Virus genome (UHGV): UHGV-0208947
DNA length: 43,224 nt
Source: a virus
Reading direction: 5' to 3' (one strand)
Both the position numbers and the translations under genes were made by a program. The notes beneath the pieces were generated by a model that saw nothing but the letters and a program-made list of their open reading frames with translations, was not told where the DNA came from and did not search any database. Below, piece by piece: positions 961 to 43,224 of this stretch (position 1 is the stretch's first letter; each line of letters opens with the position of its first letter).

Positions 961-1417
961 TGATACCTCTGTAACCACAATTTTGTTTAATAATCTTAGC
1001 GTGCACATTTTCTGAACATACATGCAGCGCGTGAATGTGTTAAACAATAGTAGATGACTTTATCGGCAGTAATCAAAGGTTTTGAGCGAGCAACTCTGCG
1101 TCAGGAAAGGGCATTTTCCTGAATATGTTCACATCATATAAAGAAATACAGATAAAGCTATTATCTGCTTGTGGTGGTGAATGCACTGACCGGCTATAAG
1201 GAAAGGCCAAACAAGAACACGGTTGCAAAAACCGTGCCCTTAAATATTGAATCTCTATTCAGAACACTTTCTTAAATTGTCATTTGGCATATTACGAACA
1301 ATTCCGCGTAAAAACGTTCTGTTACGCTAAACCCTTATCCAGCAGGCTTTCAAGGATGTAAACCATAACACTCTGCGAACTAGTGTTACATTGCGTGTAG
1401 CTTTGAGTGGGCAACTT

Positions 1418-1458
1418 TGTGTACACTTTTGTGTACCCAAAAACAAAAATGTGTACCC
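1418..1458 (+). repeat. Three direct repeats TGTGTAC(A/C)C immediately upstream of the integrase start; candidate arm-type Int binding sites or int regulatory repeats
   Basis: TGTGTACAC at 1418-1426, TGTGTACCC at 1430-1438 and 1450-1458, same orientation. Confidence 0.4.
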
Positions 1459-1463
1459 ATTCA

Positions 1464-2657
1464 ATGATCACCGACACAAAGCTCAGGAAGGCGCTCGGCA
1501 AGAAAAGAGATGATATCGAGATTATTTCTGATTCGCACGGGCTCAACGCCAGAATCAGCCAGGCCGGAAAAATATCATTTTTCTATCGGTATCGCTGGGC
1601 CGGTAAAGCGGTAAAACTCAATGTTGGTGATTATCCTGCAATGAGTATCACCCAGGCAAGAGAGCGTCGCCAACAATTCAGAAACTGGTTAACTGAGGGA
1701 CTGGATCCGCGAGAGCAGGTGAAGCTGGATAAGCAGACCCGACAGGAAGCGATGTCCGTTGCCGAAGCGTTCAATTACTGGATTGAAAGGCACTGTATCG
1801 CTAACGGGCTAGTTAAAGTCGATTACTATCGCTAGGTGTTTGAGAAACATATCGCCGAACCGATGAAGAATGTCAAAGTCGATAACACAGCGAAAATGCA
1901 CTGGATCAACGTCTTCGATTCTATAGAAAGCAGGGTGATGGCTCATTACATGCTTTCGCTGTGCAAACGGGCGTTTAGGTTCTGCGTTAACAGAAGTGTG
2001 ATCGCCTCAAACCCACTCGAGGGATTACTGCCATCTGATGTCGGGCAAAAGCCTAAAAAGAGAACTCGCAGGATGGACGATGACGATCTGCGCAAAATCT
2101 ATCAGTGGTTGAAAAGCCATATGTCGATAGAGTCCGTTTTCCTGGTGAAATTTATTATGCTTACCGGATGCCGTACGGCTGAGATTCGACTTAGTGAGAG
2201 ATCATGGTTTCGATTGGATGATAATGAGTGGGTCGTGCCTGCGGGCAGTTATAAAACTCGGGTACATATTAGAAGGGGACTCTCAGACGCCGCCGTTAAC
2301 CTGGTCAGAAATCACCTCAAGAAAATAAACACCAATCACCTGGTGACTTCACAACGTAAAATTGATGGCGGGATCAAAGATTCGCCCGTTCATTCACCTG
2401 TGGCATCCAATTACGCCCGTTCTATTTGGAATGGAACAGGTATGGCAGAGTGGTCGCTTCATGATATGAGGCGGACGATAGCCACAAATCTCTCTGAGTT
2501 AGGTTGCCCGCCGCACGTAATTGAAAAGCTGCTCGGGCATCAGATGGTGGGGGTTATGGCGCATTACAACCTTCATGACTATATCGATGATCAGAAACAC
2601 TGGCTCCGCGTTTGGCAGAGCCATCTTGAAGAGATCATCGGAGAGCCCTTCAGTTAA
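1464..2657 (+). pseudogene. int: P4-type tyrosine integrase interrupted by an in-frame TAG (amber) codon at 1833-1835
   Basis: N-terminal [14 protein letters not shown]...[31 protein letters not shown] resembles the arm-binding domain of P4-like integrases; C-terminal part (ORF 1836-2657) has HxxR and a terminal MAHYNLHDY tyrosine motif. Track ORFs 1407-1835 and 1836-2657 are in the same frame, separated only by TAG. Confidence 0.6.
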
Positions 2658-2896
2658 TTTATCTTCTTTTTATCCTCCCACTCTTTGATTGACTCAGAGC
2701 GCCAGCGGTTAGGGTTGCCGGGCCAGTCAGGGGGTGGGAACGGGCATACGAAGCCCCGAGGCATTGTGTCTGCACTTTGCCATGACCAAAGGGTTTTGCG
2801 TGAAATTTTGTAGCGACTGGTCAGGTCTGACGTTACCAAAATATCATCCATAGCTCTCTCCAGTTGCCCGTTCGGGCCATTCAAAATCTTTTTCAA
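2654..2896 (-). CDS. AlpA-family small DNA-binding protein (putative excisionase or regulator)
   Basis: 80-aa ORF adjacent to int; ...[15 protein letters not shown]... resembles AlpA/Xis-type HTH; start codon uncertain. Confidence 0.5.
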
Positions 2897-40402: not shown

Positions 40403-41130
40403 TGGCTGGAACTAATGATTTTAAAGCGTTTGCGACAGATGCTAATGCAAATGTTACCTCGCAGGAGGAATGGGAGACGCTAACCGCACTGAAGAAAGGA
40501 TTCTCCTCGGGTAAAGCATCCAGCGCACAGGTCAGTAAAGCGCTGCGCCAACCGTCGACGATGGCGGCTGTACTGGGGCAGTTTATCGCGAACGCCGAAC
40601 TGGACGCGCTCGATGATGGTGACGTTGATGGACTGGTGGCAAAGCTGGCGACAGCGATTACCACAAACCTTGGTTTGGGAGAAGGCTCTGCATTACCTGT
40701 TGGTGTCCCTGTTCCGTGGCCTTCAGCCACTCCGCCAACAGGCTGGCTGAAATGCAATGGTGCAGCTTTTTCTGCTGAAGAATACCCGGAACTGGCAAAG
40801 GCTTATCCGACAAATAAATTGCCTGATTTACGTGGTGAGTTTATTCGTGGCTGGGATGACGGTCGTTCAGTAGATACTGGTCGCAGCGTTATGTCTGCAC
40901 AGAGAGCGCGTGTTGGTTATATTAAATTTGATATGGGAATTTATGGTATTCCTGCAGGTACGGGCTCACTTATTTTGTCCAATGATATCTTAATTACGGG
41001 TCATGACAGTAATGGCTCAAGCCTATTACTGAACAACTCTAATGAGCGGGCAATTGGTGAAATGTATGTCGTTCCTGCCGATACTCGCCCACAAAATATT
41101 GCATTTAACTATATCGTGAGGGCCGCATAA
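40402..41130 (+). CDS. Tail fibre protein (constant N-terminus plus currently expressed variable C-terminus with tail-collar-like motif)
   Basis: ...GWLKCNGAAFSAEEYPELAKAY...LPDLRGEFIRG resembles the phage tail collar/fibre domain; the hix-like crossover site lies within the gene at 40658-40683. Confidence 0.75.
   Translation: MAGTNDFKAFATDANANVTSQEEWETLTALKKGFSSGKASSAQVSKALRQPSTMAAVLGQFIANAELDALDDGDVDGLVAKLATAITTNLGLGEGSALPVGVPVPWPSATPPTGWLKCNGAAFSAEEYPELAKAYPTNKLPDLRGEFIRGWDDGRSVDTGRSVMSAQRARVGYIKFDMGIYGIPAGTGSLILSNDILITGHDSNGSSLLLNNSNERAIGEMYVVPADTRPQNIAFNYIVRAA
40658..40683. promoter_or_regulatory. Left inversion crossover site (hix/gix-like 26 bp) inside the tail fibre gene
   Basis: TTACCACAAACCTTGGTTTGGGAGAA; its reverse complement shares the first 14 bp (TTCTCCCAAACCAA) with the site at 42591-42616. 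Confidence 0.6.
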
Positions 41131-41732
41131 TGAATAATGCAGAATTAAATAGTGAATTGATTGCTACTGCGGCAGGGAATATTACTGTTTATAACTATGA
41201 TGGTGAGACGCGAGAGTATACTACTACATCAACTGAATATCTTGCTGTGGGTGTCGGTATCCCGGCAAGTTCCTGTTTAGATACTCCTGGCTCATATAAA
41301 GCTGGTTATGCAATCTGCCGTTCTGCAGATTTTAACTCATGGGAATATGTGCCAGACCATCGCGGTGAAATCGTCTTTAGCACCGAAACAGGAGAATCAA
41401 AAGAAATCACAGCTCCGGGTGATTACCCTAATAATACAACCACTATCGCCCCATTAACGCCATACGATAAATGGGATGGTGAGAAATGGGTGACGGATAC
41501 TGAGGCACAGCATAGCGCCGCAGTAGACGCGGCAGAAGCACAGCGTCAGTCACTGATTGATGCTGCAATGGCTTCCATCAGTCTGATTCAGCTGAAATTA
41601 CAGGCCGGACGGAAGTTGATGCAGGCAGAAACAACCCGGCTTAACGCTGTGCTGGATTACATTGACGCGGTGACGGCAACAAATACCAGCACCGCGCCGG
41701 ATGTCATCTGGCCTGAACTGCCGGAGGAGTAG
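41130..41732 (+). CDS. Tail fibre assembly protein (chaperone)
   Basis: 200 aa; C-terminal ...TNTSTAPDVIWPELPEE typical of Tfa proteins; coupled to the tail fibre gene. Confidence 0.7.
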   Translation: MNNAELNSELIATAAGNITVYNYDGETREYTTTSTEYLAVGVGIPASSCLDTPGSYKAGYAICRSADFNSWEYVPDHRGEIVFSTETGESKEITAPGDYPNNTTTIAPLTPYDKWDGEKWVTDTEAQHSAAVDAAEAQRQSLIDAAMASISLIQLKLQAGRKLMQAETTRLNAVLDYIDAVTATNTSTAPDVIWPELPEE

Positions 41733-42147
41733 GCCATTCAATATCTGGCGCACCGGAAGTATCGACCAGTTCCAGTGCGTCCAGATAATCCAGCCACGAA
41801 TTATATTGCGCCAGTTCCTCGCCTTTCAGACGACCAATAGCAGCTTTGCCAGGCCACTGATGGGTATTGATGTAGGTATTGACTTCTGAAACCAAAGATA
41901 TTTTTTTCATTTCAGCCGTCAACACCTCATCCTCTTTTGAAGGGGGTGGGGAATTAATCCATACTGGCCGTCCTGAACTATCAGCGCCAATTTCTTTCCC
42001 TTCTGGATGCAGACCAAGAAATTGCTCATATGTTTCTCTGGTAATTTCAATAACATCATCAGGAAGCGTTCCCGCATCCTCATATTCTGGAAACAATTCT
42101 TGCAGATAAAAACTTTTACTTCCGGGTGAAAAGAATACTGAGTTCAT
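41704..42147 (-). CDS. Alternative tail fibre assembly protein (inverted orientation)
   Basis: 147 aa; C-terminal ...DTSGAPDIEWPTPPAVQAR parallels the plus-strand Tfa; convergent overlap. Confidence 0.7.
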   Translation of the reverse strand: MNSVFFSPGSKSFYLQELFPEYEDAGTLPDDVIEITRETYEQFLGLHPEGKEIGADSSGRPVWINSPPPSKEDEVLTAEMKKISLVSEVNTYINTHQWPGKAAIGRLKGEELAQYNSWLDYLDALELVDTSGAPDIEWPTPPAVQAR

Positions 42148-42149
42148 TA

Positions 42150-42623
42150 TTACCGTCCAATGATTAACGCTGAGACGCTGGTATCTGAAGGAAAGTCTGC
42201 ATTCAGTGGTTTGTCGACTTTGAATACAATCGTATTATTCCCCCGGACAGCGGCAAAAGAACAAACCGCCGTCGCGTATGAACCTGTAATATTACTGAAT
42301 ACACCACCATAGGCTGTTGTTGATACCAGAGGGATAACGCCCAGCACCTTATTAGGAAATACAAAGGGCAATGTGGCTGTGGCAATATAAGACTTATTAG
42401 AACCTGTAATGGCATAAGCATTATCAGTCATTCCATTCATCGCCACTGGACCGCTTATACTTACAGTAACCATCTGAGTGATTAGCCCGTCAGGTTGACG
42501 AATCACAAAATTTCCATTGCCACCAGTAACCGTCCAGAAAGACATATCAGGGATTTGGTTTTCCCCGTTGCCCACATTCCTTTTTGCCGCTTCTCCCAAA
42601 CCAACCTTTTTTATAACCATCAA
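42150..42623 (-). CDS. Alternative tail fibre variable C-terminal cassette (silent in this orientation)
   Basis: N-terminal ...KKVGLGEAAKRN... reads through the right hix-like site and shares the GLGE junction with the constant part of the plus-strand fibre (..TTNLGLGEGS..). Confidence 0.65.
   Translation of the reverse strand: MMVIKKVGLGEAAKRNVGNGENQIPDMSFWTVTGGNGNFVIRQPDGLITQMVTVSISGPVAMNGMTDNAYAITGSNKSYIATATLPFVFPNKVLGVIPLVSTTAYGGVFSNITGSYATAVCSFAAVRGNNTIVFKVDKPLNADFPSDTSVSALIIGR
42591..42616. promoter_or_regulatory. Right inversion crossover site (hix/gix-like 26 bp)
   Basis: TTCTCCCAAACCAACCTTTTTTATAA; compare hixL TTCTTGAAAACCAAGGTTTTTGATAA as recalled. Confidence 0.6.
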
Positions 42624-42675
42624 AAATCTGGTGATGCTTCGCCGTTTCTCCTGTTTTCATAACAGGAGAAATCCC

Positions 42676-43224
42676 ATGATTTACGGTTATGCCCGAGTAT
42701 CAACAAACCACCAGGACACTGAATTGCAACTAACGGCGCTCAAGTCAGCGGGTTGTGAGAAAATTTTTGAAGAGCATGCCAGCGGGAGGAAATCGAATCG
42801 GCCGGTTCTAAAACGGCTGATCGCCACTATGCAGCCGGGGGATGAACTGGTGGTCTGGAAGCTGGACAGGATAGGCCGCAACGTTCTGCATGCGCTGTTG
42901 ATGTTCCAGCAGTTACAGGAAAAGGGTATCAACTTCCGCAGTATTACCGATGGCGTGGATCTCAAAACAGCCAGCGGCCGCTATAACTTTCGTAACATCC
43001 TTTCCGCAGCACAATATGAATCTGATCTTAATAGCGAACGTACCTTAGCAGGGCTGGCCGTAGCCAGGGCAAAAGGGCGAGTTGGTGGTCGCAGGCCTAA
43101 GTTCACGGATGAGCAATGGTGGGAAATGGGGGAGCGGATGGCAACCGGTGAATCACGACAAAGCGTATCAAAAACATATGGAGTAGGGCTCTCAACTCTG
43201 TATAAAAAGTTTCCAGCTAGCTGA
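42676..43224 (+). CDS. Serine DNA invertase (Gin/Hin/Pin/Cin family)
   Basis: ATG at 42676 after AGGAGA; MIYGYARVSTNHQDTELQ... with catalytic Ser in YARVST, VVWKLDRIGRN, C-terminal HTH ...GLSTLYKKFPAS; ends with TGA at the last window base. Confidence 0.85.
   Translation: MIYGYARVSTNHQDTELQLTALKSAGCEKIFEEHASGRKSNRPVLKRLIATMQPGDELVVWKLDRIGRNVLHALLMFQQLQEKGINFRSITDGVDLKTASGRYNFRNILSAAQYESDLNSERTLAGLAVARAKGRVGGRRPKFTDEQWWEMGERMATGESRQSVSKTYGVGLSTLYKKFPAS

Follow-up and report, generated by a model that had tools for sequence, protein, structure and literature searches.

A premature amber codon in the integrase gene of an otherwise intact prophage at the phi80 attachment site of Escherichia coli

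Organization of the locus

The window, i.e. the entire stretch of 43,224 nucleotides analysed here (virus genome UHGV-0208947), carries a prophage of E. coli that occupies the phi80 attachment site, with kch on one side and yciI on the other. Positions 1–960 hold the 5' part of host kch on the minus strand, the gene continuing past the left window edge, as identified from the RefSeq annotation of three collinear loci (L001–L003). This gene borders the phi80 attachment locus on its left, chromosomal side; the order there is kch, prophage and yciI-tonB. The attL core, ACACTTTCTTAAATTGT (1264–1280), is the 17-bp phi80 attP core, located by mapping the 'attP core' feature of GenBank entry JX871397 by sequence, and homology to a contig spanning the attP junction (L014) and to two secondary-site lysogens (L010 and L011) starts at 1257–1267. 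Lysogens at secondary sites were observed beside tsr and nrf.

A putative promoter of the integrase gene int, pI (1395–1427, plus strand), consists of a -35 box GTGTAG (1395–1400) and a -10 box TACACT (1422–1427); the annotation is that of the depositors of JX871397 and was transferred by exact sequence. Three direct repeats of TGTGTAC(A/C)C (1418–1426, 1430–1438 and 1450–1458, plus strand) overlap the -10 box and the int start region. The motif has four matches in the window against 0.4 expected, and in phi80 attP a further, fourth copy spans the core, making these repeats candidate arm-type binding sites for Int. Within the 3' end of int, a putative terminator of leftward transcription (2602–2622, minus strand) is carried over from the phi80 annotation by exact sequence. 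The excisionase gene xis (2654–2851, minus strand, 65 aa) is intact, with a translation identical to phi80 Xis AFV29170.1; it converges on int, with a 4-nt overlap at the int stop codon. Both the 17-bp core and the cognate excisionase thus adjoin int.

The remainder of the prophage (2893–43224) was delineated by tblastn with the proteins of the LR-33 prophage, by annotation and from the attP junction contig. LR-33 is the closest relative among 5426 complete E. coli genomes, and its int is intact. The early and regulatory genes in this region comprise DUF4060, RecT, RecE, KilR/YdaE, repressor/cro-like, YdaT, O/P replication and Q genes, and the late genes comprise lysis, TerL and portal genes, a myovirus-type tail and an invertible tail-fibre segment with a Pin-type invertase at 42676–43221. 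Outside int and its attachment functions the prophage is unlike phi80, having a RecE/RecT early region and a SEN34/Omnitron-like myovirus structural module. The 60 LR-33 prophage proteins match over their full length and without stops everywhere but in the mosaic tail-fibre segment, so that int is the only broken gene and the other 60 prophage genes compared are all intact. No tRNA or suppressor gene was found in the window, which ends about 117 nt short of the attR core.

The integrase gene and its stop codon

The most likely extent of int is 1464–2657 (plus strand, 397 codons). Pfam, RefSeq and the phi80 record identify it as a phi80-type tyrosine integrase gene that has been pseudogenised by a single nonsense codon, and apart from that stop the protein shows no differences from phage phi80 Int (AFV29169.1) over 397 residues. 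The phi80 integrase is also carried by phages HK225, mEp237 and mEpX1. A reading of the sequence without database searches had called the enzyme P4-type, and this is borne out by the N-terminal domain, which is of the P4/CP4 type (PF13356; PDB entry 3jtz, 'CP4-like integrase'). Three starts are annotated for this gene: ATG 1464 (RefSeq), ATG 1449 (JX871397) and GTG 1407. The last, adopted in the sequence-only reading, is merely that of the longest possible ORF and corresponds to the 416-aa 'pot. int-polypeptide' of GenBank entry X04051; it probably lies too far upstream, given the RefSeq and JX871397 starts and the position of the annotated pI -10 box (1422–1427) downstream of it.

The premature amber codon occupies 1833–1835 (plus strand) in the context GTC GAT TAC TAT CGC TAG GTG TTT GAG. 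The flanking ORFs (1407–1835 and 1836–2657) share the frame of the TAG, and when they are joined their translation aligns collinearly with WP_000627155.1, an intact protein of 397 aa. The interruption is therefore a single in-frame amber without a frameshift, as first read, and an uninterrupted frame joining both integrase domains is absent from the window. Comparison with intact homologues also yields the ancestral codon: between 1300 and 2700 the sole difference from the intact copies in NEB5-alpha and ECCRA-119 is C to T at 1833, converting CAG to TAG. The codon affected specifies Gln124 by the RefSeq count, which corresponds to Gln129 of the 402-aa phi80 annotation and to Gln143 if the longest ORF is used. 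At the DNA level CGCCAGGTG has become CGCTAGGTG, and the resulting CTAGG (1832–1836) derives from CCAGG, a site of the Dcm methyltransferase (specificity from PMC9520237), in which the changed base is the second, inner C and the change is a transition.

The stop separates recognizable domains. The arm-type DNA-binding domain PF13356 (Arm-DNA-bind_3, formerly DUF4102) covers residues 2–87 (E = 1.3e-19) on its 5' side, and the catalytic domain PF00589 (Phage_integrase) covers residues 203–371 of the joined frame (E = 3e-17) on its 3' side, which shows that the stop does not fall by chance in a frame lacking constraint. The N-terminal domains of PDB entries 3jtz and 3ju0 align to Int residues 2–97 and the core-binding domain 2kj5 to residues 94–197. 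The catalytic residues Arg237, Lys264, His333, Arg336, His359 and Tyr368, located by motif, are all encoded after the TAG. Since the conserved arm-binding domain is encoded upstream of the stop, a true start beyond 1835 is rejected. As it stands in the window, int is a pseudogene, a non-functional member of the tyrosine recombinase family.

Translation from 1464 would end after 123 residues (1464–1832, plus strand). From the PF13356 match and the alignments to 3jtz, 3ju0 and 2kj5, the predicted product contains the whole arm-DNA-binding domain (2–87) and the beginning of the core-binding region. Such a fragment could bind arm sites but would have neither the bulk of the core-binding domain nor any catalytic residue; these are encoded in the untranslated remainder (1836–2654, plus strand), which includes the entire catalytic domain as judged from PF00589 and the motif positions.

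The retention of a complete arm-binding domain, together with the overlap of the candidate arm-type repeats with the pI -10 box and the int start, could mean that the gene has been repurposed, the 123-residue fragment acting as a repressor of pI or as a dominant-negative inhibitor of phi80-type integrases resident in the same cell, or pairing with a product restarted at GTG 1836 or ATG 1863. A GTG does directly follow the TAG, and lacI provides known cases of restart after an early amber codon. However, inspection of the sequences upstream of these two in-frame candidates revealed no Shine–Dalgarno sequence, a look-up of the 273-aa product from GTG 1836 returned no record, and any restarted protein would be missing the initial portion of the core-binding domain. 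In addition, the allele is rare, is one among many disruptions of this gene and bears no sign of selection. In phage lambda Int, moreover, separate N- and C-terminal polypeptides do not recombine, the halves needing engineered changes in order to do so (PMC9791396). A repurposed or two-part integrase is accordingly considered quite improbable.

Distribution of the amber allele

The TAG at 1833 is also present in at least six independent public assemblies (L006, L007, L008, L009, L013 and L139), and the accessions of its carriers are ERZ27289124, ERZ19693016, ERZ28618401, ERR4783141, SRR23529795 and SRR30350127. These differ from each other and from the window in SNPs at 55 and 1158, in int haplotype (1973C, 1664T) and in a variant 3' end, placing the TAG on two to four int haplotypes. 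It occurs with both alleles of the polymorphism at 1973, 140 nt away; the 1973C haplotype with CAG is found in 6 of 174 complete genomes. The host flanks of carriers L007 and L006 differ by about 0.8%, right up to attL. The TAG is found in none of the 174 complete E. coli genomes that carry this int, and a 40-mer containing it has no match in JGI metagenome contigs and none in IMG/VR, against 57 wild-type matches in the latter; the wild-type Int protein is present in at least 1000 contigs. The allele therefore appears to be rare and to have arisen more than once, although part of this recurrence could reflect recombination among mosaic prophages rather than independent mutation. The suggestion of a very recent mutation agrees with int being the sole broken gene, but not with an allele common to non-identical assemblies on several backgrounds. 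Assembly forks were seen exactly at the variable base. Pile-ups of contig ends were considered as a sign of mixed alleles within samples and set aside, since they are present also at positions without a known nonsense allele; the exact-length look-ups used bias this result.

The same distribution bears on whether the TAG was introduced by sequencing or assembly, e.g. through a nanopore miscall of a true CAG at a methylated CCAGG. [quoted passage not shown] One public contig, L019, has platform-type errors at precisely both CCAGG sites of int, and complete RefSeq E. coli genomes lack the TAG. The errors in L019 are nevertheless of other kinds (AG to GT and a 1-nt deletion), and the identical C-to-T change is found in MEGAHIT, metaSPAdes-type and Logan short-read assemblies of other samples. 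Of these short-read assemblies, one matches the window at 100% identity over 10.6 kb, and a second has a single SNP in 11.8 kb. Furthermore, only one of 95 CCWGG sites compared between the window and LR-33 shows C to T, namely 1833, the other differences (about 50) being ordinary polymorphisms, although this comparison is weak by itself because nanopore errors affect few sites per genome. The presence of the TAG in independent Illumina-type assemblies, from different samples and assemblers, leads to rejection of a sequencing error, which was one of the options raised from the sequence, as scarcely credible.

A genuine TAG could still be decoded, either by a suppressor of the supE/glnV type or by leaky near-cognate decoding, such that functional Int is made and excision and integration are kept, possibly at a lowered, tuned level. 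Because the codon was originally CAG, glutamine inserted at UAG by even low-level readthrough would give functional, exactly wild-type Int again, and the several host backgrounds are easier to explain if the phage still lysogenises. Several observations argue against this. The stop is not conserved among homologues, being absent from all 174 complete genomes and all 57 IMG/VR contigs that have this int, as would not be expected of a programmed feature; the window contains no tRNA gene; and the other stops (TGA and TAA) and frameshifts in the same gene are as plain decay predicts. Amber suppressors are also rare in natural isolates. Finally, no attP junction carrying the TAG was found, a result that provides no evidence either way on excision of the mutant. 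Maintenance of function by readthrough is thus judged highly unlikely.

Mutational origin

The amber codon is most probably a genuine natural null allele of int (Gln124 to amber) in an otherwise intact mosaic prophage, produced by a transition at the inner C of CCAGG and marking an early stage of decay. The inner C of CCAGG is the classic target of 5-methylcytosine deamination. Genomes of E. coli and Salmonella show C-to-T change at the inner C of CCWGG to be about eightfold faster than at other cytosines, and the T/G intermediate at these sites is repaired by Vsr (PMC9520237). Spontaneous deamination of a Dcm-made 5-methylcytosine that escaped Vsr repair is therefore the most likely origin of the change at 1833, on circumstantial grounds. 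The errors in L019 at the CCAGG sites are a hint of methylation in one other strain; the host's dcm and vsr genes, like any amber suppressor it may have, are located beyond the window.

The pattern of stops elsewhere in int is partly consistent with this origin. The gene has ten CAG codons, three of which lie in CCAGG. Natural amber alleles occur at Gln64 and Gln124, i.e. at two of the three CCAGG-context codons in public data, and the seven CAG codons in other contexts have none; exact-product look-ups miss fragments shorter than about 30 aa, e.g. that of Q33am. The Gln64 amber, carried by SRR35966814, SRR24556780, SRR11276987 and SRR22500207, sits on yet another haplotype than the Gln124 alleles. 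Stops unrelated to Dcm also exist, including C-to-T nonsense alleles at the CGA codons for Arg93 and Arg242, the first (R93op) on two haplotypes, and transversion stops at Lys118 and Cys236. Further lesions in public assemblies include TGA and TAA nonsense codons, frameshifts and insertions of IS3 and IS903B. Two other candidates were discarded: an apparent stop at Trp215 (a 214-aa fragment) is a sequence junction at 2107 rather than a point mutation, and Y122am comes from a contig (L106) of about 0.7x coverage with many other mismatches.

Alternatively, the TAG could have had a single origin by any route and have spread through prophage recombination or chromosomal transfer, the Dcm context being coincidental. 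Lambdoid prophages are strongly mosaic, and int is at least 99% identical across all 174 carrier genomes, so that short recombinant tracts would be invisible. The non-Dcm allele R93op is likewise found on two haplotypes. Moreover, among 20 transition-to-stop targets, both Dcm targets but only 2 of 18 non-Dcm targets are hit (Fisher p = 0.03), an enrichment that is marginal and based on small numbers. Against a single origin stand the occurrence of the TAG on both alleles of a polymorphism only 140 nt away, the divergence of about 0.8% between hosts right up to attL, the independent amber at Dcm-context Gln64 on another haplotype with none at the seven non-Dcm CAG codons, and the status of the inner C of CCWGG as a documented C-to-T hotspot (PMC9520237). 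A single origin is thus regarded as unlikely, though far less so than an artefact, readthrough or repurposing, and a methylation-dependent null mutation is preferred.

Consequences and comparison with known systems

With the core-binding part and the catalytic residues missing, Int-dependent recombination of attL and attR should fail despite the intact xis. Since none of the other 60 prophage genes in the comparison is damaged, the prophage probably remains inducible while being defective in excision. On induction it would be expected to replicate in place, to yield few or no viable phage and to fail to lysogenise a new host. A precedent is provided by P22 delta-int prophages, which replicate in situ, amplify flanking host DNA and give far lower titres (PMC8575938). 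The likeness to the P22 delta-int and delta-xis prophages lies in the loss of the integrase (delta-int) from an otherwise complete, presumably inducible prophage, whereas the present allele is a natural point nonsense mutation and that in P22 is an engineered deletion. Lateral transduction of the P22 type should not be assumed for this phage.

The int amber is genuine, but as an early event in the decay of a prophage it is ordinary. In cryptic or defective prophages of E. coli, too, the integrase gene is inactivated and the element remains in the chromosome, as part of general prophage decay. The window differs from such integrase pseudogenes in that int is the sole lesion beside 60 intact genes, so that decay is here at its very beginning and the element is no leftover. 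Domestication of a prophage can start with the loss of its integrase; this is known biology, and the present case leaves current understanding unchanged.

The amber hotspots of lacI at CCAGG are the classical Dcm 5-methylcytosine hotspots. The change at 1833 shares with them the motif, the inner C, the transition and the CAG-to-TAG outcome, is apparently recurrent and is accompanied by a second affected CCAGG codon. In contrast to the selected laboratory mutants of lacI, it comes from natural populations and a prophage gene, and int has non-Dcm stops as well. It is thus a natural example in which host cytosine methylation possibly biases which prophage genes break first.

A more far-reaching reading, considered improbable here, is that the CAG codons in CCAGG (Gln124, Gln64 and perhaps Gln33) are weak points at which Dcm repeatedly locks prophages in, that the 123-aa fragment, held on the arm-type repeats at attL and pI, and the occupied primary attB together block or divert phages with the same integrase, and that induction amplifies and possibly transduces yciI-tonB-trp. 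The locus would be of greater interest if amplification or transduction of tonB-trp by the locked prophage, or interference of the N-terminal fragment with related phages, proved true.

The similarity to phi80 int (JX871397, AFV29169.1; X04051) extends over the protein except for codon 124, the att core, pI, xis, the terminator and the kch/yciI site. For annotation, this complete-looking prophage should count as defective in both excision and lysogenisation. Its int should be entered as one pseudogene; gene callers split it into an 'Arm DNA-binding domain protein' and a short 'integrase'.

The interrupted integrase gene

The sequence-only reading of an amber codon within the integrase frame is borne out: the window reads GTC GAT TAC TAT CGC TAG GTG TTT GAG, and the TAG at 1833–1835 shares its frame with the flanking open reading frames 1407..1835 and 1836..2657. 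In Pfam, the arm-DNA-binding domain (PF13356; E-value 1e-19 over residues 2–87) is complete 5′ of the stop and the phage-integrase catalytic domain (PF00589; E-value 3e-17) lies 3′ of it, indicating that int is a single gene cut by a stop and ruling out two neighbouring open reading frames in its place. The extent 1407–2657 given in that reading holds for the interrupted frame but not for the start, GTG 1407 being only the beginning of the longest possible open reading frame. It is the start of the 416-residue 'potential int polypeptide' of a 1986 record (X04051), and the annotated promoter −10 box (1422–1427) lies downstream of it; int starts at ATG 1449 in the phi80 genome record and at ATG 1464 in RefSeq (397 residues, WP_000627155.1). 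Codons are numbered here from the RefSeq start, which makes the stop codon 124.

Curated phi80 features mapped by exact sequence place the attL core (ACACTTTCTTAAATTGT) at 1264–1280, the putative promoter pI at 1395–1400 (−35) and 1422–1427 (−10) and a putative leftward terminator at 2602–2622. The xis gene (65 residues; 2654–2851, minus strand), mapped in the same way, is identical to phi80 Xis, is convergent with int and overlaps the int stop codon by 4 nt, while the host gene kch occupies the leftmost 960 bases. The int–xis–attP cassette is common to phi80, HK225, mEp237 and mEpX1 in the phage collection, and the integrase is found at 99% identity or more in 174 of 5426 complete E. coli genomes, including the phi80dlacZ-delta-M15 laboratory strains DH5-alpha, NEB5-alpha, JM83, XL10-Gold and EPI300. 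Apart from codon 124 the window protein shows no difference from phi80 Int, whereas the remainder of the prophage differs from phi80.

Nature and authenticity of the mutation

Across positions 1300–2700 intact copies differ from the window at one base alone, 1833, where C→T has converted CAG (Gln) to TAG. The ancestral context CGC-CAG-GTG contains CCAGG and the changed base is its inner C, the base of CCWGG that is methylated by Dcm and can become T directly through deamination of 5-methylcytosine (PMC9520237). Vsr repair usually corrects the T/G mismatch that follows; in E. coli and Salmonella genomes the inner Dcm cytosine mutates to T about eightfold faster than other cytosines (PMC9520237). 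The int lesion is a textbook amber mutation of the 5-methylcytosine type.

The same context raises the alternative of a consensus error, since Dcm motifs are the main source of such errors with older nanopore base-callers (PMC8106442), and 1833 sits in one. One contig (L019, Logan DRR205406) departs from int precisely within its two CCAGG motifs, with AG→GT at window-equivalent 1654–1655 and a 1-nt deletion at 1834, and is unchanged elsewhere in the gene; the pattern resembles sequencing-platform errors where Dcm sites are methylated. Against an error in the window, however, 1833 is the only one of 95 CCWGG sites shared with the nearest complete relative, the LR-33 prophage, to show C→T, and the other ∼50 differences between the two are ordinary polymorphisms. 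Exact look-up of the truncated 123-residue product and of the 194-residue open reading frame called after the stop also recovered the same TAG in at least six independent assemblies, among the matches listed being ERZ27289124 (L006), ERZ19693016 (L008), ERZ28618401 (L009), ERR4783141 (L007), SRR23529795 (L013) and SRR30350127 (L139). These are not copies of the window: the L009 contig starts at window position 1223, position 1158 distinguishes both L006 and L008 from the window, and position 55 distinguishes L008 as well. Because a single Dcm site is affected and the allele recurs in independent, non-identical assemblies, it is real and has been inherited within a lineage that has since diversified.

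The allele is rare, being absent from every one of the 174 complete E. coli genomes and 57 IMG/VR contigs that carry this int and not found in JGI metagenome contigs; the wild-type protein occurs in at least 1000 contigs.

Probable recurrence of the allele, and other lesions of int

In L007 the TAG lies on the minority int haplotype 1973C, which carries CAG in six of the 174 complete genomes; its immunity region differs from that of the window, and the opp-cls-kch host flank beside it differs by ∼0.8% from the flank at the window-type locus. The int copy of L013 is a variant at its 3′ end and is followed by other DNA, resembling the CAG-bearing allele of strain KL53, and L139 has an additional 1664T. 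Independent mutations are the simplest reading, since a phage without integrase cannot lysogenize a new host unaided, although recombination among mosaic prophages may have spread the TAG.

Ten int codons are CAG, three of them within CCAGG (Q33, Q64 and Q124). In exact look-ups of predicted truncation products in public assemblies, four assemblies had a real Q64 amber (C1653T), carried by a further haplotype, and no amber was found at the seven non-Dcm CAG codons; the Q33 amber product, of only 32 residues, is effectively invisible to this search. Real C→T stops also occur at the CGA codons R93 and R242, and none of the transition stops looked up at CGA83, CGA250, CAA195, CAA297 or TGG75/147/215/248/256 was found. 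Transition-to-stop targets were hit at 2/2 Dcm vs 2/18 non-Dcm codons (Fisher p = 0.03), an enrichment that is suggestive but not conclusive.

Public genomes contain further breaks, among them transversion stops at K118 and C236. Loci L137 (the complete genome LR134247.1), L140, L141, L144, P0035 and H29 (MSB1_9D) show frameshifts in the A5 run at 2051–2055 (1-nt deletion), at ΔC2069 and at ΔG2023, a fusion of an IS3 end to codon 62/63 and an insertion of IS903B. Assembly error may account for some of the indels in homopolymers. The 194-residue C-terminal open reading frame is indexed in 293 collection blocks, and the general picture is of a phi80-type integrase that is often broken in nature, with Dcm-context codons as favoured targets. 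A further-reaching reading, in which CAG codons in Dcm context make the integrase systematically fragile and the locked prophage or its arm-binding fragment has effects on related phages or on host genes nearby, is possible but improbable.

Contigs of many unrelated assemblies (loci L010–L015, L027–L033 and L095–L134) end at exact int positions, window-equivalent 1652–54, 1740–41, 1814–16, 1826–28, 1832–34, 2107, 2167–69 and 2186, most of which are known nonsense-variant sites. These ends could be assembly-graph forks where wild-type and mutant int coexist in one sample or genome; exact-length look-ups introduce some ascertainment bias towards contigs ending at variable bases.

Predicted consequences for the protein and the prophage

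The stop falls shortly after the start of the core-binding region (residues 2–97 align with PDB N-domains and 94–197 with a core-binding domain) and precedes R237, K264, H333, R336, H359 and Y368. The mutant product would be a 123-residue arm-binding fragment devoid of catalytic capacity. The restart candidates GTG 1836 and ATG 1863 have no Shine–Dalgarno sequence before them, and N- and C-terminal polypeptides of lambda Int supplied as separate pieces fail to recombine (PMC9791396). Insertion of Gln at UAG, whether leaky or suppressor-mediated, would recreate wild-type Int; the window contains no tRNA genes.

All 60 of the other LR-33 prophage proteins are matched in the window by full-length counterparts free of stops, with exceptions solely in the mosaic tail-fibre segment, so the prophage has probably remained inducible. 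A P22 Δint prophage replicates in situ, amplifies flanking host DNA and yields few phage (PMC8575938). By analogy, induction here would be expected to give in-situ replication, amplified flanking host DNA and a low phage yield. Lateral transduction requires pac packaging. The lesion is a natural Q124am null allele of a phi80-type Int, in which gene, mutation type and outcome are all of known kinds, and the outcome is a first step of prophage decay.

Attachment sites and prophage organization

The phi80-annotated pI −10 box and the start codons of int are overlapped by three direct repeats of TGTGTAC(A/C)C (1418–1426, 1430–1438 and 1450–1458); beyond the att core, phi80 attP has a fourth copy (L119, 317–323). 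The window contains four matches vs 0.4 expected. The repeats probably serve as arm-type sites for Int binding, in which case int would be autoregulated.

Logan contig SRR25010975 (L014, 1–969) joins window 42949–43224, 117 further bases and window 1257–1832; it is the attP junction of an excised or circular phage with the wild-type C allele, and it places the window end ∼117 nt before the attR core. In two isolates, int lies beside tsr or the nrf operon (GCA_029172905.1, L010, 9800–10369; GCA_024905055.1, L011, 9804–10369), with junctions inside the degenerate core copies AAACTTTATGAAATTGT and GGCTTTCTTAAATTGT. Both isolates appear to be lysogens at secondary sites, and in each the contig ends exactly at window-equivalent 1832.

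The prophage has RecE/RecT/KilR in its early region, lambda-like O/P replication genes, a SEN34/Omnitron-like temperate myovirus structural module and a Pin-type invertase. LR-33 carries its prophage at the same site with int intact and is 99.8% identical to the window over the first 32.7 kb. The kch–attL intergenic region (961–1160) is unusually diverged from LR-33 (∼10 substitutions and one indel in 170 nt) and the adjoining prophage is nearly identical, which points to almost the same prophage in different host backgrounds. Relative to LR-33 the most mosaic part is 41130–43221, where highly diverged tail-fibre and tail-fibre-assembly genes lie in opposite orientations beside the Pin/Hin-type DNA invertase (42676–43221); it looks like an invertible host-range segment.
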